Positions 11,051-61,473 of a stretch of 64,000 nucleotides of DNA are shown one piece after another. A model generated the notes under the pieces. That model was given only the letters and a program-made list of their open reading frames with translations. It had not been told where the DNA came from and ran no database searches. The stretch spans positions 992,001 to 1,056,000 of the forward strand of contig CAVXPZ010000001.1 in assembly GCA_963763775.1 (NCBI GenBank), in the 5' to 3' direction. This DNA is from an uncultured Chloroflexia bacterium (GTDB lineage: Bacteria > Chloroflexota > Limnocylindria > Limnocylindrales > CSP1-4). Within the stretch, counting starts at the first letter, position 1, and every line of letters starts with the position of its first letter. The translations under genes were made by a program, and so were the position numbers.

Positions 11051-12398
11051 GCGAACCGACAGCGAGCTGTTCGAGGCGAGGTTCGCCGATCGCGTCCACG
11101 CGTACACCGAGGTCGCGACCGTGCGGCCGTTCGATGCGTCGGCAACCTCACGGACCGCGATGACGTCCGCGCGGAACGTCGGCTGGCCTGAGCGCCTGAT
11201 GGGCGATCGGCGCGGTCTGCGGATCGGTGGCGCGCGGTTCGCCGCCATCGCCCTCGGCGTCGTCCTGGTCGGCGTCGTCGCGGTCGGCCTCCTCGGGCAG
11301 CCGCACGCCGTGGTCGGCCCGCAGCCGACCTCGTCCGCGTCGGCCACGAGTGCTGCCGCCGCGGCCGGCGGCCCGATCCCCGACGACCTCATCCACTCGT
11401 GGGAACGGCCGTATGCCGTCACGCCCGGCCTGGACCGATGGCCCACCGCGTCCCTTCGGCTGACGAGCGACCTCCTTGAGGTCGGGCCCGGGCCGGTCGC
11501 CGAAACGTCGCGGTCCACGGTCTCGACGGCGGGTGCAAGCACCATAGACGCGGTGGCGACCACGGAGACCCGAGGTTGCGCGACCGGCGACCAGGGCGCC
11601 TACCACTGGTCGGTGGACTCGAAAGACACGGTCCTGACGCTGACGCCGAGCGGGACCGATGCGTGCGCGGCCCGGCAGACCGCCCTCGCCGGCGACTGGG
11701 TGCGCTCCGATCTGCCACCCGTGCCGGACTCTAGGACCCCGCTGCAACCGGGACCGAACGAGACGTCGAGCTTCGACCCGTTCGGCGGCGCGGCGACGGC
11801 CGGCCGGCTCTCCTATACCGTGCCAGCGGGCTGGTCCCTCGAGGAGGACGCAGCCGGGTCGGTCACACTCCGTCGCCTAGAGGACACCTCCGGAAGCCAG
11901 CCATCGCACGAACCGTTCATCGCCCTCATCGCGCGGCCCGCCGTGGCCGCGGAGCCCAAAGCCGGGGTGGTCTGCGGCCCGTTCGCCGACGCACCGGGCA
12001 TCGGCCACAGCGTCGCTGACATCGTGGCAGCGATCACGACCCGACCCGGCGTGGAATCCACGTCGGCGCCCGTGACCATCGGCGGCTATGACGGCCAGGT
12101 GCTCGACCTCCGCGTCGCGGCGTCGTCGACGAGCGGTTGCCTCGCACCGGACGGGCTGACGAGGGGGATCCCGATCCTCCTGCAAGCGGGTTCGGCGAAC
12201 GGGCCCGCGGCGGGCATCGACCCGGACCATCCGATCCGGCTCATCCTGCTCGACCTGGGTGGCGGCCGGACGATGGCCGCGGTGATCTTCGATCCCGTAC
12301 CGTCCTCGTCGTCTGCAGCCGGATCGTCGTTCGAGGCGCAGGTCGCCAAGGCGATGCCGGTCATCGAGAGTTTCGAATTCCACCCGTCTGTGCCGTAG
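11043..12398 (+). CDS. Putative membrane-anchored anti-sigma factor
   Basis: Overlaps the sigma-factor stop; short cytoplasmic N-terminus, one TM helix, large extracellular region with Cys pairs. Confidence 0.65.
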   Translation: MTERTDSELFEARFADRVHAYTEVATVRPFDASATSRTAMTSARNVGWPERLMGDRRGLRIGGARFAAIALGVVLVGVVAVGLLGQPHAVVGPQPTSSASATSAAAAAGGPIPDDLIHSWERPYAVTPGLDRWPTASLRLTSDLLEVGPGPVAETSRSTVSTAGASTIDAVATTETRGCATGDQGAYHWSVDSKDTVLTLTPSGTDACAARQTALAGDWVRSDLPPVPDSRTPLQPGPNETSSFDPFGGAATAGRLSYTVPAGWSLEEDAAGSVTLRRLEDTSGSQPSHEPFIALIARPAVAAEPKAGVVCGPFADAPGIGHSVADIVAAITTRPGVESTSAPVTIGGYDGQVLDLRVAASSTSGCLAPDGLTRGIPILLQAGSANGPAAGIDPDHPIRLILLDLGGGRTMAAVIFDPVPSSSSAAGSSFEAQVAKAMPVIESFEFHPSVP

Positions 12399-12408
12399 CA
12401 CCGCGCCG

Positions 12409-12900
12409 CTAGCCCTCGCGTCGCCCGACGAGTTCCGCCACCCACGCCCGCAGGCGGTCGAGATGCTCCGTGTAGTGGTCGCACCCGGACTTCCGGATCC
12501 ACCACGCCGCCTCGTCGCTCGGGGCGGCGAGGTGGGACCACTCGTCGACCATCCGCGAGCGCCCCGCGTTCGCCTGGACCCAGGCGACCTCCCACGGGTG
12601 CCCGGCCATCGCCTCGAGGAAGGTGGCGTTGAGGCGGTCGATGTCGACGTCGTGGCCCTCGTACGTGCCCGCAGTGATCCGCTCGAGCTGCGCCTGGCCT
12701 TCGGCGAGCCACGTCCCCAGGTGCGCCACGACGTCGCGGACCGTCCAGTCCGGGTCCGTGTAATAACCGGGGATGAGGCACTCGTCGGGGGTCAATGAGC
12801 GCACGAGGGCCGCGATGTCATACCAGCCGACCCGCTCCGCCTCGAGCTCGACGGCGTAAGGGCGTGGCGACTCGGGCGGCGTCGGCCCCTCGTCGGTCAC
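12409..12900 (-). CDS. DinB/MDMPI N-terminal metal-binding domain protein
   Basis: WTVRDVVAHLGTW and HYTEH. Confidence 0.75.
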   Translation of the reverse strand: MTDEGPTPPESPRPYAVELEAERVGWYDIAALVRSLTPDECLIPGYYTDPDWTVRDVVAHLGTWLAEGQAQLERITAGTYEGHDVDIDRLNATFLEAMAGHPWEVAWVQANAGRSRMVDEWSHLAAPSDEAAWWIRKSGCDHYTEHLDRLRAWVAELVGRREG

Positions 12901-13268
12901 GGCGACCCCACCATGTCGCCCACCAGCGGGAGCCCGGCATCCTCCCAATCGAGCAGGCCGCCCGAGTAGCGGCGGACGTTCCGGTAGCCTCGGCGCACGA
13001 GGTCGCGGTACACCGCGACGCTCGAGAGGCAGTCGACATGCGAGCAGTACACCACGACCTCATCGTCCGGGTGGACCGCGGCGTAGAGCGCCTCCGGCGT
13101 GTCGAAATGCACCGAACCGGGGATGTGCTTGGCCTCGAAGGCCCAGCGGTTCAGGGCCATGATCAACGTCACGTCGTCGCCGCGATCGAGCTTGGCCTTG
13201 AGCTCGTCGCGGCCGATCGTGCGGATCGGCTCCGTGCCGAGGGCGGCGCTGGGTCGCGGTTGATCCAT
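12897..13268 (-). CDS. Rhodanese-like domain protein
   Basis: HIPGS, VVVYCSHVDC, YSGGLLDW. Confidence 0.85.
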   Translation of the reverse strand: MDQPRPSAALGTEPIRTIGRDELKAKLDRGDDVTLIMALNRWAFEAKHIPGSVHFDTPEALYAAVHPDDEVVVYCSHVDCLSSVAVYRDLVRRGYRNVRRYSGGLLDWEDAGLPLVGDMVGSP

Positions 13269-51483: not shown

Positions 51484-51971
51484 TCGACCCGATCCGCCTC
51501 TCCTTCGAGGTCCGCTGCCCGCCGGAGCAGGCCTTCGAGACGTGGACGGCGCTGATCGACACGTGGTGGCCGCACGACCACACGGTCACGGCTGCGGACG
51601 AGCTCGCCGTCGTCCTCGAGCCGCGGCCCGGCGGTCGCATCTACGAGCGGACCGGCGCGGGCGACGAGTATGAGTGGGGCGAGGTGACCGTCTGGGAGCC
51701 GCCGACGCGGTTCGGCTACCTCTGGCACCTGCGACGGGACCGCGCGGATGCGACCGATGTCGAGGTGCGGTTCGTCGACGCGGGCGACGGGTCGACGACG
51801 GTCGAGATCGTCCACAGCGGCTGGGAGCGCCTGGGCGCCGAGGGCGAGCCGTGGCGCGACCGCAACCACGGCGGATGGGCCACCCTCCTCCCGCACTTCG
51901 TCGAGGCCGCGGAGCGCGCCAGCCAGGGCGACGCGGACTCAGCCCAGGGCGTCGAGCACCGCGTCGGATAA
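51480..51971 (+). CDS. SRPBCC (AHA1/START-like) domain protein
   Basis: WWP, WEPP, VEVRF, HSGW, GGW. Confidence 0.85.
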   Translation: MIDPIRLSFEVRCPPEQAFETWTALIDTWWPHDHTVTAADELAVVLEPRPGGRIYERTGAGDEYEWGEVTVWEPPTRFGYLWHLRRDRADATDVEVRFVDAGDGSTTVEIVHSGWERLGAEGEPWRDRNHGGWATLLPHFVEAAERASQGDADSAQGVEHRVG

Positions 51972-52772
51972 CGCCGGCCAGGCGTCCAGCGCCCATGGCC
52001 CGAACTCGCGGTCCGTCAGGACGACGAGCGCGATATCCGCCTCCGGGTCGGCCCACACGAACGTACCGGCCCCGCCGAAGTGGCCGTACGTGGCCGGGCT
52101 TGCCCGCTCGCCCATCCAGTGCGGCGACTTGCCGCCATGGAGCTCGGGTCCCAGCGCCCAGTCGCACGGGGCGAAGTTGCCGACACCCGGCACGACCCCC
52201 GCGAGTCCCGGGAAGGCGACCGTCGTGGCCGCCACGACGGTCGACGGCGCCAGCAAGGTGGGACGCAGGAGCTCGCCCGCAAAGGCGGCCATGTCGTCCA
52301 CGGACCCATCGAGGCCCTGCGACGGCCGGTCGACCAGGCGGGTCCGGCCCATCCCGAGCGGCTCGAGGACGTCGGACCGGACGATCGCCTCGAACGATCC
52401 GGGCGCCTCGCCACGCGACTCCGCCACGAGCCGACCGAGGGCGTCGTACCCCGGGTTCGAGTAGATCCGGCGACGGCCCGGTGCGGAGATCGGCGTCTCG
52501 CCCTCGAACGGCAGACCCGAGGCGTGGGCCAGCAGGTGGCGCACGGTCGCCCCGGGCGGCCCGGCCGGCGCGTCGAGATCGAGCTCGCCCCGGTCGGCGG
52601 CCATCAGGACGCTCCACGCGGTCACGAGCTTGGTCAATGAAGCGAGCCGGAAGACCTGCCCAGGATCGCCGTGACGCGCCACGACACCATCCGGGCCGAC
52701 CACGGCGGCGGCCGCGTGGGTCGCACCCCAGTCGTCGACGCGGGCCAGGACGCTTGCGAGCCGGTCGGTCAT
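51939..52772 (-). CDS. Serine hydrolase, beta-lactamase family
   Basis: SLTK, LLAHASG, YSN, GHFG. Confidence 0.88.
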   Translation of the reverse strand: MTDRLASVLARVDDWGATHAAAAVVGPDGVVARHGDPGQVFRLASLTKLVTAWSVLMAADRGELDLDAPAGPPGATVRHLLAHASGLPFEGETPISAPGRRRIYSNPGYDALGRLVAESRGEAPGSFEAIVRSDVLEPLGMGRTRLVDRPSQGLDGSVDDMAAFAGELLRPTLLAPSTVVAATTVAFPGLAGVVPGVGNFAPCDWALGPELHGGKSPHWMGERASPATYGHFGGAGTFVWADPEADIALVVLTDREFGPWALDAWPALSDAVLDALG

Positions 52773-54584: not shown

Positions 54585-55262
54585 ATGAGGTTCTTCCAGT
54601 CCACCCCCAAGTCCATCCCCTCCCCCGCCGAGACGCTGCCCGGCCGAACCGAGCCGATCATGACGCCAGGCATCCACACGATCCTCGGCACGCCCCTCGC
54701 CGGTCCGTGGCCCGAGGGCACCAAGACCGCGATCTTCGGCCTCGGCTGCTTCTGGGGTGACGAGAAGGACTTCTGGCAGCTGCCCGGTGTCGTGACGACG
54801 GCCGTCGGCTATGCGGGCGGGACGACGCCCAATCCGACCTACAACGAGACCTGCACCGGCCGGACCGGCCATGCGGAGGTCGTCCTCGTCGCGTACGACC
54901 CCTCGCGGATCACGTATGAGCAGCTCCTGAAGACCTTCTGGGAGCACCACGATCCGACGCAGGGAATGCGCCAGGGCAACGACGTCGGGACGCAGTACAG
55001 GTCGATCATCCTCACCGCCGACGACGAGCAGCGGGCCGCCGCCGAGGCGTCCAAGGCGATGTTCCAGGACCAGCTCACGAAGGCGGGCTACGGCCAGATC
55101 AAGACTGAGATCGTCGACGCCGCCTCGAACCCGTTCTACTACGCCGAGGACTACCACCAGCAGTATCTCGACAAGAATCCCCGGGGTTACTGCCCCAACC
55201 ACGCAACCGGCGTAAAGCTACCCGACGACTTCGCGGTCACACCGCTCCAGTACGTGGACTAG
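54585..55262 (+). CDS. msrA: Peptide methionine sulfoxide reductase A
   Basis: [31 protein letters not shown]. Confidence 0.95.
55176..55262 (+). repeat. msrA 3'-end repeat, copy 1 (functional tail)
   Basis: 87 nt encoding [28 protein letters not shown]. Confidence 0.9.
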
Positions 55263-55304
55263 CAACCTCCTTCCGCCTGTGACAATGGATGAGGGGGGCT
55301 GCGA

Positions 55305-55670
55305 GTGGAGGCGAAGCGGTCGATACGGTTTCCCCGCAAGCTCTGGCTCGCGGTCGGCCTGGTTGTCGTCGGTGTCCTCCTTCTGGCGCAGAACTCGACG
55401 GTTCTTGTTCCGAACGTGGACTCCTACGTCGTGGTCAACGCGCGCACCATCGCACTGAAGGTCGCCGTCGCCCCGTGTAGCTGGACGCGGGTCACCAACG
55501 TCGCGGAATCCCCCACCGTCGTCCAGGTCAAAGTCGAGACGTGGCCCTGCCCGATCCCGCTCCCCGGCACGGGCGAGCTGGCCGCTCAAGACCTGACGGT
55601 CCTGCTCGCCGCCGACCTCGCCGGGCGGGACGTCCAAGACGCAAACGGGCAAGCGGTTCCTTCGCGGTAG
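55305..55670 (+). CDS. Hypothetical exported protein (cassette 1)
   Basis: N-terminal TM helix, two Cys, beta-rich; lower GC than flanks. Confidence 0.65.
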   Translation: MEAKRSIRFPRKLWLAVGLVVVGVLLLAQNSTVLVPNVDSYVVVNARTIALKVAVAPCSWTRVTNVAESPTVVQVKVETWPCPIPLPGTGELAAQDLTVLLAADLAGRDVQDANGQAVPSR

Positions 55671-55682
55671 GCGGAAATGGCA

Positions 55683-55789
55683 CCGGCAGCAGTCTCGCTG
55701 AGGATCCCCGTGGTTACTGCCCCAACCACGCGACCGGCGTAAAGCTCCCCGATGACTTCGTGGTGACGCCGCTCCAGTACGTGGACTAG
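55683..55789 (+). repeat. 20-bp motif + msrA 3'-end copy 2
   Basis: CCGGCAGCAGTCTCGCTGAG, then 79/87 identity to the msrA tail including TAG. Confidence 0.9.
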
Positions 55790-55816
55790 TCGACCCCCAT
55801 CACTACACTCGGGGAC

Positions 55817-56182
55817 ATGAAAGCGACACCGTTCGTCCGCCTCGCCGAGATCGACATCGACCCGGCACAGCGCGAGGCGTTCAACTCGGCGGTCAAGGAA
55901 GAGATGGACGAGTCGGTTCGAGTCGAGCCGGGCGTGTTGGCCCTCTATGCCGTAGCCGAGAAGGACGACCCGTCCCGCCTGCGATTCTTCGAGATCTACG
56001 CCGACGAAGCGGCGTACGACAGGCACCTGGAGTCGCCCCACTTTCGGAAGTACCGAGCAACCACCGAGCCGATGATCCGGTCGCGTACGTTGACCGAGAC
56101 CATCCCGATCCAACTCAGCTCGAAGCCGAATTGGCAGCAGGATCAGGGAGATGACAAAGCCCGCCGGCAGCAGTCTCGCTGA
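55817..56182 (+). CDS. Antibiotic biosynthesis monooxygenase / quinol monooxygenase family (cassette 2)
   Basis: EPGVLALYA, FFEIYADEAAYDRHLESPHF; TACACT -10 at 55804. Confidence 0.85.
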   Translation: MKATPFVRLAEIDIDPAQREAFNSAVKEEMDESVRVEPGVLALYAVAEKDDPSRLRFFEIYADEAAYDRHLESPHFRKYRATTEPMIRSRTLTETIPIQLSSKPNWQQDQGDDKARRQQSR

Positions 56183-56266
56183 GAATCCGAACGGCTACGG
56201 CCCCAACCACGCGACGGGCGTTCGGCTGCCGGACGGCTTCGGGTCACGCCGCTGCAGTACGTCGAC
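56164..56266 (+). repeat. 20-bp motif + degenerate msrA 3'-end copy 3
   Basis: Same 20-mer, then [27 protein letters not shown] with a 1-nt deletion and no stop. Confidence 0.85.
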
Positions 56267-56444
56267 CAACGCCCGATCCTGTCGAGCCCGATCGTCAGCG
56301 GTCAACGCCAGGCCGTGAACTTCGCGGCTTGATCCGCCAGGTTCACTCCGTCCGCCGGACGCGCCTCTGCGAAGATGCAGGGAGCGTGCCCGGGTGCGTC
56401 GACGAACGTCGGCGTCCTTCGCCCGTCGACGCCCTGGAGGGCCG

Positions 56445-57299
56445 ATGACTGGATCACTGCTGGTTCATCCCGCGGCGGACGAGACCGCGTTCGCGAACAG
56501 CGGTGGCATCCGCATCGCATGGCGCCGATATGGAGATGGTCCCGAGACGATCCTCCTCCTGCCGACGTGGAACTTCGTCGACTCCCGCGTCCAGCGCCAC
56601 CAGGTGGACGCGCTCCGTGATCAATTCCGAGTGCTGACGTACGACGCACGCGGGTCCGGCCAAAGCGACCATCCCTCGGCCGGATACCGCTTCGCAGACC
56701 ACCTCGAGGACGCGCTCGCGGTGCTCGACGCGACCCAGACGGCGGCCGCATCCGTCGTGGCGGCGTCAAGAGGCACACACGTCGCGGTCCTGCTCGCGAC
56801 CGGACATCTCGATCGCGTGCATCGCATGGTCCTGGTCGCACCCGCGATCGACGTTCCGGCCGACGACCAGCTTGTGGCGCCGACGGAGACGGAGGACGAA
56901 CCCGACTGGCGGACCGACTACGCAGCGTTCGTTCACTGGTTCATCTCCACGGCGTTCCCGGAACCTGGCCAGGAGACGACGATCGCGGAGATCGTGAAGA
57001 TCGCCCTGGGCGCCGACCATGCGATGCTGCTCCAGCAAGGCACGGAACTCGACTGGGACGAGGCCCCGCGTCGTCTCAAGGACGTACGCTGCCCGACGCT
57101 CGTGATCCATGGGACCGCAGATCGGACGCTAGACGTGGACTCGGTGAAGGCCGTCGCGTCGTCGATCCCCGGCGCGGACCTCGTGCTACTCGACGGCCTG
57201 GGCCATCGTCCCGATATCAGTCGGCCGGCCATCGTCAACCCGATCCTCGCCGACTTCCTGGGTACCGCGCCATCGGCCGTGTCTGCTCCGGGTAGCTGA
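56445..57299 (+). CDS. Alpha/beta fold hydrolase
   Basis: YDARGSGQS, ASRG elbow, HGTAD, GH. Confidence 0.85.
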   Translation: MTGSLLVHPAADETAFANSGGIRIAWRRYGDGPETILLLPTWNFVDSRVQRHQVDALRDQFRVLTYDARGSGQSDHPSAGYRFADHLEDALAVLDATQTAAASVVAASRGTHVAVLLATGHLDRVHRMVLVAPAIDVPADDQLVAPTETEDEPDWRTDYAAFVHWFISTAFPEPGQETTIAEIVKIALGADHAMLLQQGTELDWDEAPRRLKDVRCPTLVIHGTADRTLDVDSVKAVASSIPGADLVLLDGLGHRPDISRPAIVNPILADFLGTAPSAVSAPGS

Positions 57300-57358
57300 G
57301 GACCGGATCCGTGCGTGAGCGATCTGCTGGCGGACGCCGCGGCGTACGTCGGGTAGGC

Positions 57359-57760
57359 CTATGCGGGTGGTCGCCCGACCTGGCGCGCGTAGTCAGCTGC
57401 GTCGAACCAGCCTCGGGACGACCTGACCAGGTACTCCGCGTCGACGTCCCACTCTTCCCAGCCGGGGATCCGTAGCGCGTTGCCGGTCGTCACGGCGGTC
57501 CCGGTGAAGGTCCACAGGTAGGCGACGTGGTCGCCGGCGATGCGCAGGCCGTCGCAGACGAGGGCGAGATCGGGCACGTCGGCGAAGAAGCCCGCAGCCA
57601 TCTCTGCGACCCCGGTCCGACCCTCCCAGAGGCGACCGCGGTTGATGACGATCCCGCCGTCCGGGGCATAGAACTGCGCGACAGCCTCGGCGGATCCTGA
57701 GTTCCACGCCGCGGTGTACGCGTCCGCGACCTGGCGCATCCGGTCGTGATCGATGGTCAT
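57359..57760 (-). CDS. SnoaL/NTF2-like protein
   Basis: YTAAWNS, FFADVPD, WTFTGT. Confidence 0.8.
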   Translation of the reverse strand: MTIDHDRMRQVADAYTAAWNSGSAEAVAQFYAPDGGIVINRGRLWEGRTGVAEMAAGFFADVPDLALVCDGLRIAGDHVAYLWTFTGTAVTTGNALRIPGWEEWDVDAEYLVRSSRGWFDAADYARQVGRPPA

Positions 57761-57780
57761 CGTCGTGTCCCCTCTGGTTC

Positions 57781-58341
57781 TTACTCGGTGGCGTAGCCCA
57801 GGTACGTCACGCCCGATGAGAACGTGCGGGTGTCGGTGAGGCGTAGGCGGATCGGCGCGTCGAGGGGCGGGAGGTACGGCGTCCCGGACCCGAGGATGAC
57901 CGGGTGCACGACCAGCTCGTACCGGTCGACCAGGCCCCGCCTGATGAACGCGGACGCCAGGGTCGGACCGCCGACCTCGAAATCACCGTCGAGCTCGGTG
58001 CGCAGCCGTGCGAGCTCCTCACCGACGTCGCCACGGACCAGCCGGCTGTTCCAGTCGACCGACGTCAGCGTGGATGAGAAGACGAACTTGGGGATGCCCA
58101 GCCAGAGGCGCCCGAACTCGCGCATGGGCTCGGTCGCGGCGGGGTCGTCCTGGGCCGTCGGCCAGTACGCCGACATCAGCTCGTACAACCTGCGGCCATA
58201 GAGCGAAGCGGCGAGGCCGCGCGCCCGATCGGTGAACCAGGTGAGGAGCTCGTCGTCGTTGACCCCCCAGTCGACCGAGTGGTCCGTGGTCTCGATGAAC
58301 CCGTCAAGCGAAACGTTGAGGGTGTAGATCAGCCTGCCCAT
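57781..58341 (-). CDS. Dihydrofolate reductase / RibD C-terminal family protein
   Basis: VSLDGF, GRRLYE, VGGPTLA, PVILGSG. Confidence 0.88.
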   Translation of the reverse strand: MGRLIYTLNVSLDGFIETTDHSVDWGVNDDELLTWFTDRARGLAASLYGRRLYELMSAYWPTAQDDPAATEPMREFGRLWLGIPKFVFSSTLTSVDWNSRLVRGDVGEELARLRTELDGDFEVGGPTLASAFIRRGLVDRYELVVHPVILGSGTPYLPPLDAPIRLRLTDTRTFSSGVTYLGYATE

Positions 58342-58421
58342 CCGCGCCTCCGTGTGGTCACGTCGTCTGCCGCGATGGACGACAGGAGGTCGAGCTTAGA
58401 GGCTGCCGTCCGGGGACCGGA

Positions 58422-59340
58422 TCAGTCGCCAAGCGTGAGAGCGAACTTGCCGGCGACCTCGCGGTCCTGCAGCCGCTGCATGGCCCCCTCGATCTCCTCC
58501 CACGGCGATGCCCCGGCCAGTTGCGGATCCAGCTTGCCCTCGCCCACGAGGGTCGCGAGGTATCCGAGGTCGCGACCGAACGGCTCGTCCCCGAAGAACA
58601 GTTCGAATCCCTGGAGGCGAACGAGACCGTCGTTGAAGACGTCCCTGACGTCGAAGGTGGTCGGCTCGCTGGAGCTGTTGCCGAACATGACGAGCGTCCC
58701 ATCAGGGTCGACGATCGTGACGAGCCGGCCGAGCGTCGCGCCTCCCACCGACTCAAGGATCAGGTCGAACCGGCCGCGGAGCTGCCCGATGTCTGCCACG
58801 ACCTCGTCGGCCCCGAGGTCCCGAAGGCCCGCCGACCGCGCCGAACCCTCGCTGACCAGTGCCGTGACCTCCGCGCCACCCAGGTGGGCCAGCTGGATCG
58901 CGAACCGGCCCACCCCGCCGGAGGCGCCCGTGATGAGGACGCGTCGCCCGAGGATGGCGGGTCCCGAGCCTGAGCATCCGTAACGCGGCCAGACCGGCGG
59001 TCGGGATCGCGGCCCCCTGGGCGAAGGACACGGCGTCGGGCAGCTCGGCGATCGAGCCCGGCGCCACCGCGACGCGCTCCGCCCACGTGCCACCTTGCCG
59101 GATCCCGACGACTCTCGTACCGGCTCGCAGACCCCCGTCGATGTCGACCTGGAGCGTGCCCGCAAAGTCCCATCCCGGACGCCATCCATCCGGCTTTCGC
59201 CGGAGCAACCCCAGCTCGCCGCGATTGATCGAGAACGCACGAACGGCGACGGGCACCTCGCCGGGCGCCACGACCGGCTCCGCAACGTCGCGCAAGGCGA
59301 TCCTGCCGGGAGCCGAGCTGTCAGCCACGAATGCGCGCAT
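58422..59340 (-). CDS. Zinc-binding (MDR) dehydrogenase; frameshift near 58968
   Basis: SINRGE, PGWDFAG, PTAGLAA in one frame; ITGASGGVG, ESVGG, GKFAL in the next. Confidence 0.82.
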
Positions 59341-59460
59341 CGTGTCAGGCCCCCTTAGACGAAGCACGCACGTTCAGACGATCGTACGCCCCAGCAGTGT
59401 GAGCCAGATCCGCCCCGTCGGGGGGGCCGATCGGCGGAGGGGAGGAGCGACAGGAAAGCG

Positions 59461-59489
59461 TTGACGGGCCGAGCCCCGGCGCATAGGCT
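59461..59489 (+). promoter_or_regulatory. Sigma70-type promoter
   Basis: TTGACG-N17-TAGGCT. Confidence 0.55.
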
Positions 59490-59547
59490 CAGGTCGAGGG
59501 CGCTCCGCCGCATGAGCGAGTGCTGCCCACGGGACGGAGGGCTCGCA

Positions 59548-59805
59548 GTGATTCGGCGGATCACCGGCATCATCCTTGGCGTGGTGGCCTTCTTGATCGT
59601 GTACTGGCTCTCTGGCGGATTGGCGACACCGTCCACGCCCAACTGGGCACTGGCGATCCTCGTCGGCCTGGTGGTCGCGCTCATCTGGCCATGGATCATG
59701 GGTCTGATCCTGGTCAGGCGCACCCGGCAGCGCCGGCAGAACGAGATCGACGAGGAAGTCCAGAAGCAGCTCGCGCAGCAGCAGAACAACCCACCAAAGT
59801 CCTGA
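59548..59805 (+). CDS. Small two-TM membrane protein (WPW family)
   Basis: GGAGG RBS + GTG; paralog of 17754-17984. Confidence 0.75.
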   Translation: MIRRITGIILGVVAFLIVYWLSGGLATPSTPNWALAILVGLVVALIWPWIMGLILVRRTRQRRQNEIDEEVQKQLAQQQNNPPKS

Positions 59806-59932
59806 TCCCGGCCACGGACGGACACGGGCGGTCGCTGCATCGCGATGACTCGCCCACGAACCCGGAGTCCGGGATTCGGCAGACGGTGACGTCGATCCCG
59901 GCGCCCGCTACGCTACCGGCGGAGGTGTCCCT

Positions 59933-60166
59933 ATGACGGTCCAGGCGGCCTTGGAAGAGGCCATGCACCACGAGACCTCGGCCGGCGTGATGAACGCCCT
60001 CGTCAAGCAGGGCGTATGGATGGCCGACGAAGACACGATGACGGCCGCGATCCACAACGTGTACTGCGGCATCATGGCCGACCACGACCACCCGAACGAG
60101 AAGGACCGCGATCAGGCGCGACAGCTGATCGCCGCGATCGGCCAGTCGAACGAGACCGGGGCCTGA
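59933..60166 (+). CDS. Small His/Cys-containing hypothetical protein
   Basis: GGAGG RBS; HNVYC...DHDH. Confidence 0.7.
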   Translation: MTVQAALEEAMHHETSAGVMNALVKQGVWMADEDTMTAAIHNVYCGIMADHDHPNEKDRDQARQLIAAIGQSNETGA

Positions 60167-60223
60167 GCCACCGGGACGGATGACGCGGGCGGACCGTCGA
60201 TCCTGACGATCCCACCGAGTACG

Positions 60224-60255
60224 AAGAGACCCTCCCGGGAACGGGAGGGTCTCTT
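60224..60255. terminator. Hairpin terminator between convergent genes
   Basis: AAGAGACCCTCCCG-GGAA-CGGGAGGGTCTCTT. Confidence 0.75.
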
Positions 60256-60302
60256 GTGTATCTGGCGGTGGGCCGGCTCCGACCGGCGCACCCGACGGAA
60301 CG

Positions 60303-61473
60303 CTACTTGCGGCTGTTGTACGTCGCGAGACCCGACCAGTCGCCACGGACCGCGTACGACGCCTGGGTCGGCCACGTGTCGAGGCTCGACGGTGGCAGCG
60401 CCCCGCCTTGCGCGATGATCTTGCGCAGCGCCGATGGATCGGTGTGCTCGAGCTCCTCGTAGGTGGTCACGCCGCCGGCGGCCAGGATCGAGGAGATCCG
60501 GGGTCCGATGCCGTTGAGCTGGGTCAGGTCGTCGGGCGCGGCGGCCGGCGCGGCCTTCGGCTTGGACGCAGCGTGGTGGGCCGGCTCGGACGCACGCTTG
60601 TTGTACTTGTTCAGGCCCTGCCAGTCGCCCTTCACGGCATACGTGGCCTGCATCGGCCACGACGCCACGTTAGCGGGCGGCACCATGTCGGCCTCGTGGA
60701 GGGCGTGTCGGAGCTGTGGCTCGTTCGCCTCGGCGAGCGCGGCGTACGTCGTGATCCCCGCGGCGGCCAGCGCCTCGCTGGCCTTGGGGCCGATGCCCGT
60801 CAGCTGCGTCAGGTCGTCCGGCGTCGCCGCGGCCGGAGCCGCCTCGACGGCCGCCGCGGCGACCACGGCCGGTGCCGCCTCCTCGGCGGGAGTCGCCTCG
60901 GCGACCTCGACCTCGTAGTCGGACACGACTTCGTCGCCGCCCAGGGCCTCGACGGCCGGGTCCACGAGCGCCTTCAGGGCCGCCTCGGTCTTGGGCGGCA
61001 ACGTGCTCGAGATGAGGAGGGCCTTCTCGCGTGGTGATGGCCTGCTCGATCATCCCGATCGAGGCCGCCCAGTTCCCTTCGTACAGGATGAACAGCGCGC
61101 TCTTCCCGCGGTCGAGCTCCTTCGTCACCTGGCGCATGAACTTGTCGTCGATCCCGATATCGTGCAGCCGGTTGCGCAGCCCGTTCAGGACGCCGACCGC
61201 CGCGCCGCCGACGACCGCGCCGGCCGGCCCGAGGACGATCGCGCCGACGATGACACCGAGCCCGGCGCCGCGGGCGGCCCCCTTGGCGCCACCACGGTCC
61301 GTGGTCTGATGGACCTTGACCCGGAACCGGGTCCGGTCGGCGATCGCGGCATCGACGATCTTCACGTTGGCGTCGACGTCGTCGATCTCCTCGATCCGCT
61401 TCAGCAGGCGCTTCGCCGCCTTGCCCGAGTCCAGCACGAACGCGGCGAGGGTCTGGCCATATTCATCGGTCAT
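60303..61473 (-). CDS. DUF1269-like membrane domain fused to two helix-hairpin-helix repeats; frameshift near 61032
   Basis: Gly-rich TM + GIDDKFM in the first frame; two DDLTQLxGIGP...SWPxQA repeats in the second. Confidence 0.72.

Follow-up and report, generated by a model that had tools for sequence, protein, structure and literature searches.

Tandem gene-sized cassettes at the msrA 3' end in one family of uncultured Chloroflexota

The DNA described here, which we call the window, is a stretch of 64,000 nt from the genome of an uncultured Chloroflexia bacterium (contig CAVXPZ010000001.1, positions 992,001 to 1,056,000). It carries the gene for peptide methionine sulfoxide reductase, msrA, whose 3'-terminal portion, hereafter the tail, recurs downstream in alternation with small genes. 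Counted from the first nucleotide of the window, the locus is organized as follows.

54585-55262, plus strand: msrA, the putative attachment gene (PMSR domain PF01625, E 4.5e-62; open reading frame listing)
55160-55194, plus strand: predicted native target site in msrA, composed of GCAGTA (55160-55165), a 22-nt spacer and TACTGCC (55188-55194)
55176-55702, plus strand: cassette 1, 527 nt, with tail 55176-55262, cargo gene A 55305-55670 and right-end 20-mer 55683-55702
55703-56183, plus strand: cassette 2, 481 nt, with intact displaced tail 55703-55789, cargo gene B 55817-56182 and right-end 20-mer 56164-56183
56184-56266, plus strand: oldest detectable displaced tail, decayed (alignment; nhmmer score 83.6)

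An earlier note on this DNA had observed that the last 29 codons of msrA occur three times, and alignment confirms it. The first copy, the 3'-terminal 87 nt of msrA itself (55176-55262), is the currently functional tail, and the homology begins at the boundary AAG|AAT (55175|55176). The second copy (55703-55789; 89% identity over 97 nt) has kept its frame and stop codon. The third (56184-56266; about 82% identity) has suffered a 1-nt deletion, has lost the stop codon and has the Cys of the YCP motif changed to Gly. The tails start 527 and 481 nt apart, in agreement with the units of about 0.5 kb that the note had described, and the two genes between them are mutually unrelated and lower in GC content (0.62-0.67 against 0.71 for the genome). 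Cargo A encodes an orphan protein of 121 aa with an N-terminal hydrophobic segment, for which no Pfam or NCBIfam family was found and the protein Atlas returned unnamed clusters only; cargo B encodes an ABM-domain protein of 121 codons, and its TGA stop lies within the end motif. Directly before each displaced tail, at 55683 and 56164, stands the same 20-mer, CCGGCAGCAGTCTCGCTGAG, which is related to the msrA sequence at that position yet distinct from it. Chance would provide 0.01 matches with up to 3 mismatches, and two copies arose in 0 of 100 shuffles. Throughout the 3.3-Mb, four-contig assembly, exact copies of the 20-mer occur only at these two sites and msrA tails only at the three sites given above. 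The CAGC/GCTG arms that the note had seen in the 20-mer are present by inspection, but arms of 4 nt are trivial and they are not a general feature. The repeats in the window match no Rfam family and contain no credible tRNA; upstream of msrA, ARAGORN called a 98-nt tRNA-Pro(CGG) on the minus strand (52374-52471), probably a false positive, within a beta-lactamase-like reading frame (51939-52772). Contigs from other public runs bridge the second junction (55652-55802) with no difference and the third (56170-56320) with one, so that the array is not an assembly artefact, the alternative that the note had entertained; these contigs are short, near-identical and derived from four runs of small share (0.07 or less), one of which may be the source sample. 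As a description of the window, the earlier note thus proves right in every checkable detail.

The arrangement is widespread. Among 201 genomes of the same family, a group of uncultured soil and freshwater Chloroflexota, the tail was matched in 82, and at least 24 genomes in 10 genera carry two or more strong matches on one contig. In this search up to four candidates were scored per genome, and three genomes flagged as unpublished (G194, G082 and G139) are counted in the tallies over the 201 without any specific claim depending on them. Together with the window, 20 multi-tail loci that were fetched make up a set of 21 array loci (loci, genomes and contigs are designated below by L, G and C numbers), in which a tail profile recognizes 72 tails, 2 to 7 per locus, with 7 in L039 and 6 in L038. 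A pattern scan of one-genome-per-species contigs yielded at least 134 loci, several further multi-tail ones among them, mostly in metagenome-assembled genomes (MAGs) titled uncultured Chloroflexia, Candidatus Limnocylindrales or Chloroflexota, from which the lineage would be a high-GC family of Chloroflexota. In a class-level sample, multi-copy loci appeared in family f1 only, and in a sister family 4 of 103 genomes showed one match each; with two candidates scored per genome, this sample shows multi-copy presence and not absence elsewhere. The gene order beyond msrA, whose constancy among relatives would have spoken against capture, is not fixed: within the genus of the window, 8 of 14 genomes have a single tail and 6 have two to four, and almost no sequence downstream of msrA is common to the window. 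In the two closed genomes, G027 and G021, about 25% of the chromosome separates msrA from dnaA, so that the position of msrA itself is conserved despite this hypervariable neighborhood.

Closed cassettes (n = 49) measure 106 to 3455 nt, with a median of 708. The point at which msrA homology starts is constant, after ...GACAAG and before AAC or AAT, and to its left the displaced copies carry a conserved motif that is related to msrA, distinct from it and not specific to any cargo. The motif comes in two classes. Class A, the type found in the window (GGCAGCAGTC(T/C)CGCTGAG), differs from msrA by a 2-nt loss and also precedes tails in L037, L055 and L044; class B, (C)GGCA(G/A)TA..C.GACCTG.C.GAG, differs by a 6-nt insertion, which places GCAGTA 22 nt before the boundary against 16 in native msrA, and precedes tails in most other arrays. 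The same type of junction therefore accompanies other cargo, as the note had anticipated. Over 79 anchored displaced copies, conservation begins about 22 nt left of the boundary. GCA[GA]TA is found in 33 of them, where shuffles predict 0.9 (4 at most) and a control window further to the left has it in 2 of 79.

The GCAGTA before the boundary and the TACTGC after it are inverted complements of each other. In native msrA these arms are separated by 22 nt in 71 copies out of 80 and by 28 nt in another 4, and displaced junctions that retain the left arm show 22 (n = 11), 28 (n = 10) or 34 nt (n = 4). Since the tails, too, vary in length, some being short and others 6 nt longer, the arm spacer is quantized in 6-nt steps. 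As single strands, 40 displaced junctions (DNA parameters, both strands) fold no better than shuffled controls, with mean z scores of -0.6 and -0.4 and 10% of the values below -2; there is thus no attC-like folding in these junctions, and we read the dyad as a feature recognized in duplex DNA. Its architecture is of the sort typical of duplex sites for a dimeric recombinase and most resembles the sites of large serine recombinases of the Ccr/DsiB type. The dyad, with its spacers of 22, 28 and 34 nt, may represent the two inverted half-sites expected around the crossover of such an attachment (att) site; the recent events examined below break elsewhere in the tail. Class B was also considered as a phage attP. 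Its 33 matches in viral contigs are all chance coding for QYxDLxE/K with no tail following. At up to 2 mismatches the counts in the 201 genomes equal those of a reversed-pattern control and are uninformative; two exact matches are among the matches listed, both within arrays.

Cargo genes lie on either strand and encode small accessory proteins: glyoxalase/VOC, SnoaL, ABM, RibD_C, YecM, DUF2652, F420H2-dependent reductase and MarR proteins, acetyltransferase-like enzymes, cyclase-hydrolase fusions, an esterase, an alcohol dehydrogenase, SUKH and TMEM175 proteins, and one enzyme of glycogen-debranching type. The only nuclease-type cargo seen is a PD-(D/E)XK nuclease (PDDEXK_13, E 3.4e-60; L109:880-2028, minus strand), less than 2 kb from an msrA tail.

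Displaced tails have a coding history. In 42 that are in register, 198 of 333 differences from the consensus fall at third codon positions, and an open frame with the stop at codon 25 is kept in 39 of the 79 anchored copies; tails therefore evolved as working coding sequence, and about half have since decayed. They are also imports rather than local duplicates. The best match of 39 of 49 displaced tails lies in another genome, and 43 of the 49 are closer to some foreign tail than to the working tail of their own genome, in an uneven comparison that offered 20 foreign arrays against one own array. Counted by rank from msrA, the intact tails number 20/21, 12/21, 6/14, 2/7 and 2/7, a decay with distance that is the expectation if new units enter beside msrA.

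Cassettes have spread horizontally. Fifteen cross-genome pairs of cargo genes were found, with identities as high as 95-96% across genera in which the msrA bodies agree at 71-80%; over all genomes with this degree of msrA identity, the figure for cargo is 95-98%. A RibD_C gene of the window, which today has no tails beside it, shares 92.7% identity with the first L049 cassette, against 74% for msrA of the two genomes. In the clearest pair, the second cassette of L047 and the first of L054, the upstream tail (88% identity), the cargo (90%) and the end motif are all homologous, whereas the tails downstream belong to different alleles and the msrA bodies show 71% identity; this cassette thus holds rank 2 in one genome and supplies the working tail in the other. 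(Identities between tails of different cassettes are taken from gapped alignments, owing to the 6-nt length classes.) Both window cassettes recur in L052 in swapped order, the homologue of cassette 1 following the ABM cassette and that of cassette 2 being 83% identical over 310 nt. A further homologue of cassette 1 is present in L049, where it and two tails are inverted relative to msrA (L049:9345-10644, plus strand, versus 12246-13077, minus strand) and the msrA-proximal tail has frame-breaking indels; part of the array may have inverted, or the assembly may be noisy here.

The fixed boundary, an end motif that mimics the target on unrelated cargo, the quantized dyad, the imported coding tails and the polarity of decay all favor site-specific integration. 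The account that we prefer, with a confidence somewhat above even, is a serial accretion of small, circular, non-autonomous cassettes at msrA, brought about by a recombinase acting in trans and later blurred by recombination and deletion among the tails. Cassettes would integrate in succession at a constant position, about 87 nt ahead of the msrA stop codon. Each would bring a substitute for the msrA tail, in most cases a single cargo gene and, at its right end, a motif of about 27 nt in imitation of what stands left of the site in msrA. A crossover at the boundary between motif and tail would give msrA a new working tail and move the old one a step downstream, where it would come to be preceded by the end motif of the incoming cassette. 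Because each insertion displaces the previous tail, the newest cassette would lie beside msrA and the older tails would be free to decay. The site would consist of the dyad GCAGTA-N22-TACTGCC in native msrA, with cassette-derived arms 6 nt further out on either side. Once inserted, cassettes could be exchanged through homologous recombination or gene conversion between tails, leaving mosaic tails, and deletions would then remove displaced ones. The earlier note had already suggested that minimal non-autonomous cassettes are inserted in series by a trans-acting enzyme; its units of tail, cargo and end motif stand and are widespread, but no recombinase was found. Candidates for a recombinase supplied in trans would be a non-resident serine recombinase or an Xer-like pair encoded by the host.

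No integrase, resolvase or transposase family was detected in 343 open reading frames (ORFs) scanned near tails. These comprise 150 of 155 selected in or just after the 21 arrays (of the five dropped, four were scanned otherwise and one, an antisense ORF, was unscanned), 123 of 211 selected in further loci, each 230 aa or longer and no more than about 2 kb away from a tail, non-Chloroflexota loci being dropped, and 70 from ten same-genus loci. The sets cover the 21 arrays, about 85 further tail-bearing loci and the ten same-genus loci. Because they were drawn with a filter on GC content at third codon positions, six-frame family searches were added. In the 21 array genomes, no PF00589 match lies nearer than about 70 kb to an array. 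The genome-wide searches, in which transposases were not included, gave no tyrosine or serine recombinase match in the window (C1:992-1056 kb); the PF00589 matches of that genome fall in two stretches, C1:649-694 kb and C1:1562-1569 kb, and for PF00239 and PF07508 the genome, 87% complete, gave no match. Matches to large serine recombinases do occur in 81 of the 201 family genomes, and PF07508 in 4 of the 21 array genomes, always on contigs other than that of the array. The recombinase co-occurring with the motif that the note had looked to was therefore not met with. Nor was an autonomous element using the msrA site found in the 201 genomes, in phage and plasmid records or in viral contigs, an absence that is not proof; the latter two sources contain no match to the msrA tail.

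Two loci seen in these searches deserve mention in their own right. At C1:1562-1569 kb, about 515 kb from the msrA array, a low-GC island that may be foreign or a binning artefact carries a small tyrosine integrase and a P4-like integrase that is broken into three ORFs (L058:1186-2064 and L060:587-1860). At C1:~649 kb, beside recN, a XerD-like gene (L059:1213-2175, minus strand) has two PF00589 matches in different frames and a C-terminal translation that looks frameshifted; the same split in G045, G081 and G011 may reflect a sequencing error or a real feature.

One could envision that the cassettes are what remains of tandem integrase-bearing islands or prophages at msrA, from which the integrases and most other genes have since been deleted; the one or two genes left in each unit would then be comparable to cis-mobilizable elements that have become fixed. 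Deletion is clearly active in these arrays. At the third copy of L036 (~L036:11025-11109, minus strand), the tail breaks off after ...CCGGATGACTTTG and continues directly as the start codon of a YecM-family gene (ATGACCGACCCG...), through a deletion whose joint lies at a GATGAC microhomology; in L237 the third tail is cut short, and L235 has lost tails. Known analogues do mix integrase-bearing with integrase-less units (PMC3146451). However, the ORF scans and six-frame searches revealed no integrase-bearing unit or fragment at any array, the large island that the note had named as a possible source included, and no phage or plasmid record or viral contig carries a tail. Moreover, the same single-gene cassettes, with both ends intact, recur at other ranks and in other orders in other genera, a pattern that independent decay would not reproduce. 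We therefore regard an origin by decay as rather improbable.

A pair of Xer-type genes, 40-45 kb apart, constitutes the only site-specific recombinases found in 13 of the 21 array genomes. One Xer-type protein of the window genome scores as a generic XerC/D, and the only protein scored against the NCBIfam integron-integrase model, the Xer-like protein of L056, reaches 104 bits against a cut-off of 265. These genes inspire an analogy with integrative mobile elements exploiting Xer (IMEX), which lack an integrase and form tandem arrays that regenerate the site: host XerC and XerD would insert cassettes at a dif-like site, as they do for elements of the CTX and TLC type at dif. Site sequence and chromosomal position speak against it. 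By inspection, the junction has no dif-like 11-6-11 core; it is unlike the single-stranded substrates of the CTX or attC type (mean z about -0.5 and, again, 10% below -2); and msrA, a quarter of the chromosome from dnaA in G027 and G021, is not at the turning point of the GC skew, and so does not lie at the replication terminus. A dif-like search pattern gave no match, so the dif site of the family was not located. An array driven in this way seems to us very improbable.

Serial site-specific integration has difficulties of its own, among them the places where recent events break. Between the second cassette of L047 and the sequence after msrA in L236, identity is about 98% over the cargo, beginning in the final ~12 nt of the tail and ending with the stop codon of the cargo gene, against about 83% over the tail, so that the high-identity block does not start at the boundary between motif and tail. 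The same holds for the second cassette of L237 and L235 (cargo 91-95%, tails about 80%). L048 and L232, 96% identical over 9.5 kb of downstream core, are perfectly identical from -52 through the boundary to +17, fall to about 79% in mid-tail and recover in the last 25 nt, and all sequence past the stop codon is unrelated. Two single-tail loci hold cassette-type cargo without an end motif: L236 has no second tail, and L235 has two cassette-type genes with no tail between them. Cargo is clearly linked to its upstream tail in only some of 12 pairs examined, and the 6-nt quantization could merely reflect two-codon indels in sequence of coding origin. No recombinase, circular form or empty/occupied-site polymorphism was observed; the sole read joint, 55168->56242, occurs in one contig with a side of 29 and unknown letters between its sides, under the reliability bar of the tool. 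In addition, the compared genomes are kin and not independent, and an unassembled plasmid or phage with the enzyme is possible because they are MAGs, 63-95% complete. All these points weigh against the account that we prefer.

With breakpoints inside or at the end of the tail in all three recent events examined, tails are mosaics, and homologous exchange between them also shapes the arrays; it may now be the main route by which cassettes are exchanged. Together with the loss of displaced tails by deletion, such mosaicism makes the arrays understate the number of insertions. One might go further and dispense with a site-specific enzyme today, the end motif being a relic and the tails portable homology arms: tail-cargo-tail DNA from relatives would be swapped in, or circles recombined through their tails would re-enter by a single RecA crossover. 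The mosaic tails and the three events speak for this simpler scheme, as does the lack of a recombinase linked to any array, with the Xer-like pair alone in most array genomes; the inverted tails and cassette of L049, too, suggest ectopic exchange. But a repeat of 85 nt at 80-90% identity is a poor substrate for RecA, and homologous exchange leaves unexplained the first tail duplications at one fixed position, the non-msrA motif shared by unrelated cargo at a fixed offset of 22 nt (the 33 of 79 against 0.9) and the quantized arm spacing. The polarity of decay, in turn, fits insertion at the end of msrA and not random exchange. Homologous recombination as the only process is, in our judgment, unlikely.

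Beyond the last tail of the window lies a further group of genes.

56267-60669, no strand assigned: probable older, tail-less part of the island (Pfam; similarity to array genes of other genomes)
56394-57299, plus strand: alpha/beta hydrolase gene (Pfam)
57359-57760, minus strand: SnoaL gene (Pfam; 77-78% identical to cassettes in L039 and L040)
57781-58341, minus strand: RibD_C gene (Pfam), the relative of the first L049 cassette at 92.7% identity
58422-59285, minus strand: ADH_zinc_N gene (Pfam)
59461-59805, plus strand: gene for a small membrane protein (about 90% identical to genes in or just past the arrays of L036, L039, L040 and L045)
60670-61473, minus strand: gene of the DUF1269/helix-hairpin-helix family (BLAST 80-84%; Pfam assignment made on the homologues L040:6813-8105 and L045:9304-10470)

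Several of the genes in 56267-60669 are cassette genes within arrays of other genomes, and the tail profile (nhmmer) detected no further tails in this interval. The DUF1269/helix-hairpin-helix gene is a conserved distal neighbor, which in L040 adjoins the last tail and in L045 and L054 comes after the array. The island of the window thus probably extends, without tails, up to this gene. Past it, the segment 61916-62537 is 76-78% identical to the DUF2652-family first cassettes of L040 and L052, and cassette-type genes therefore occur outside the interval from msrA to DUF1269 as well.

In the window genome, msrA is the only gene with such an array. A self-BLAST gave 61 nearby repeat pairs, with three or more copies only at msrA and in one chain on contig C3, which was considered as a second tail array and rejected, being promoter-like and unrelated to msrA. 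The repeat, 56-84 nt long (CGCCCGGAGGGATC.GAGCGCGCGGTGCAAACC...CGTC...), has four copies at L229:4691, 7836, 8873 and 9708 (C3:753690-758762), in a region that holds a gene like those for extracytoplasmic function (ECF) sigma factors. A similar 101-nt pair lies at L230:3864 and 9152, its first copy just upstream of an ECF-sigma-like gene. Both look like a repeated promoter or leader and not like a gene tail.

Tandem accretion at the 3' end of a single-copy gene, recombinase-less units included, is a known principle, of which SCC with its ccr-less units at rlmH and the ssrA islands of Dehalococcoides come closest to the msrA arrays. The staphylococcal cassette chromosome (SCC) integrates at the 3' end of rlmH through large serine recombinases and forms composites in which the oldest unit is outermost and which include att-flanked units without ccr genes (PMC13739063). 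SCC at rlmH (orfX) and the msrA arrays share an insertion point inside the 3' end of a single-copy protein gene, whose end the element restores; SCC sites have two half-sites around a central crossover, to which the arms of the msrA dyad may correspond. They differ in that SCC units measure 1-200 kb, many with CcrAB or CcrC, and repeat a short att core, whereas msrA units have a median of 0.7 kb and no recombinase among the 343 ORFs, repeat about 87 nt of coding sequence plus the motif, and use msrA in a Chloroflexota host.

Closer in descent are the ssrA islands of Dehalococcoides, a member of the same phylum, which depend on DsiB/DsiA, serine recombinases of the CcrB family. These islands stand in tandem downstream of their single-copy target gene, with the 3' end of that gene directly repeated at their borders, and a conserved 15-bp motif just upstream of each repeat, which does not align with the target, marks the insertion point; 16 islands have a DsiB/integration module and 15 have none, the latter being read as cis-mobilizable elements accreted in tandem (PMC3146451). 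Direct repeats of a single-copy gene's 3' end bound the tandem units at msrA just as in the SCC and ssrA islands, and the ORF scans show units flanked by att-like sequence and devoid of recombination or transfer genes, as expected of cis-mobilizable elements; no Ccr/DsiB-type recombinase, by contrast, was present within units among the 343 ORFs. The ssrA islands target a transfer-messenger RNA gene, have a 20-bp repeat and run to many kb, whereas msrA units are gene-sized and must complete a reading frame. Tycheposons of Prochlorococcus likewise leave partial tRNA copies between successive elements and degenerate remnants deeper in the island; they bring their own integrases and replication genes to tRNA targets, in which the msrA cassettes differ (10.1101/2020.12.28.424599). 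The earlier note's suggestion of an undescribed capture system must therefore be tempered by SCC and the ssrA islands. No description of cassette arrays at the end of msrA was found in literature searches whose coverage left out most subscription journals. What sets msrA apart is the integron-like size of the units, the lack of an autonomous member in more than 100 loci, the 87-nt coding repeat and the lineage.

Like integron cassettes, those at msrA are mostly single genes without a recombinase, of similar size, inserted at one proximal site that is regenerated, with small accessory enzymes as cargo and an order that is shuffled between relatives. Unlike integrons, msrA arrays have no IntI nearby or elsewhere and no attC hairpins, their cargo lies on both strands, and their site lies inside coding sequence, so that every cassette carries 87 nt of msrA. 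The integron-like array envisaged in the note thus stands as regards small single-ORF cassettes at one proximal site, but not as regards the enzyme or its folded substrate. It is tempting to speculate that Chloroflexota possess a new capture system of this general kind, with the 3' end of msrA as the dock, the ~27-nt motif as the signal and a host enzyme hitherto unconnected with cassette capture, either the Xer-like pair or an unrecognized recombinase, as the catalyst; we advance this as a tentative idea, rather doubtful as matters stand. New cassettes could arise if the enzyme brought the msrA site together with pseudo-sites of similar sequence that lie downstream of neighboring genes, which would explain why end motifs are like the msrA half-site yet differ between cassettes.

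Of the ways in which bacteria collect and reshuffle single genes, arrays of integron cassettes are the best understood, but they are bound to a single family of enzymes and to particular phyla. The msrA arrays show a comparable architecture in an abundant family of uncultured soil and freshwater Chloroflexota, on a protein gene that each cassette must repair, and more than 100 loci reveal no recombinase. Should the enzyme be new or encoded by the host, cassette capture would have been invented here independently, and the site would provide a compact targeting system of about 50 bp, with an intact msrA as a selectable read-out. If an enzyme of the Ccr/DsiB type acts from elsewhere, SCC-like biology would come to include satellites the size of a gene and would reach a further phylum. 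In both cases the arrays preserve the order of insertions as a natural record, and the hotspot accounts for much of the variation in gene content beside msrA in these genomes.

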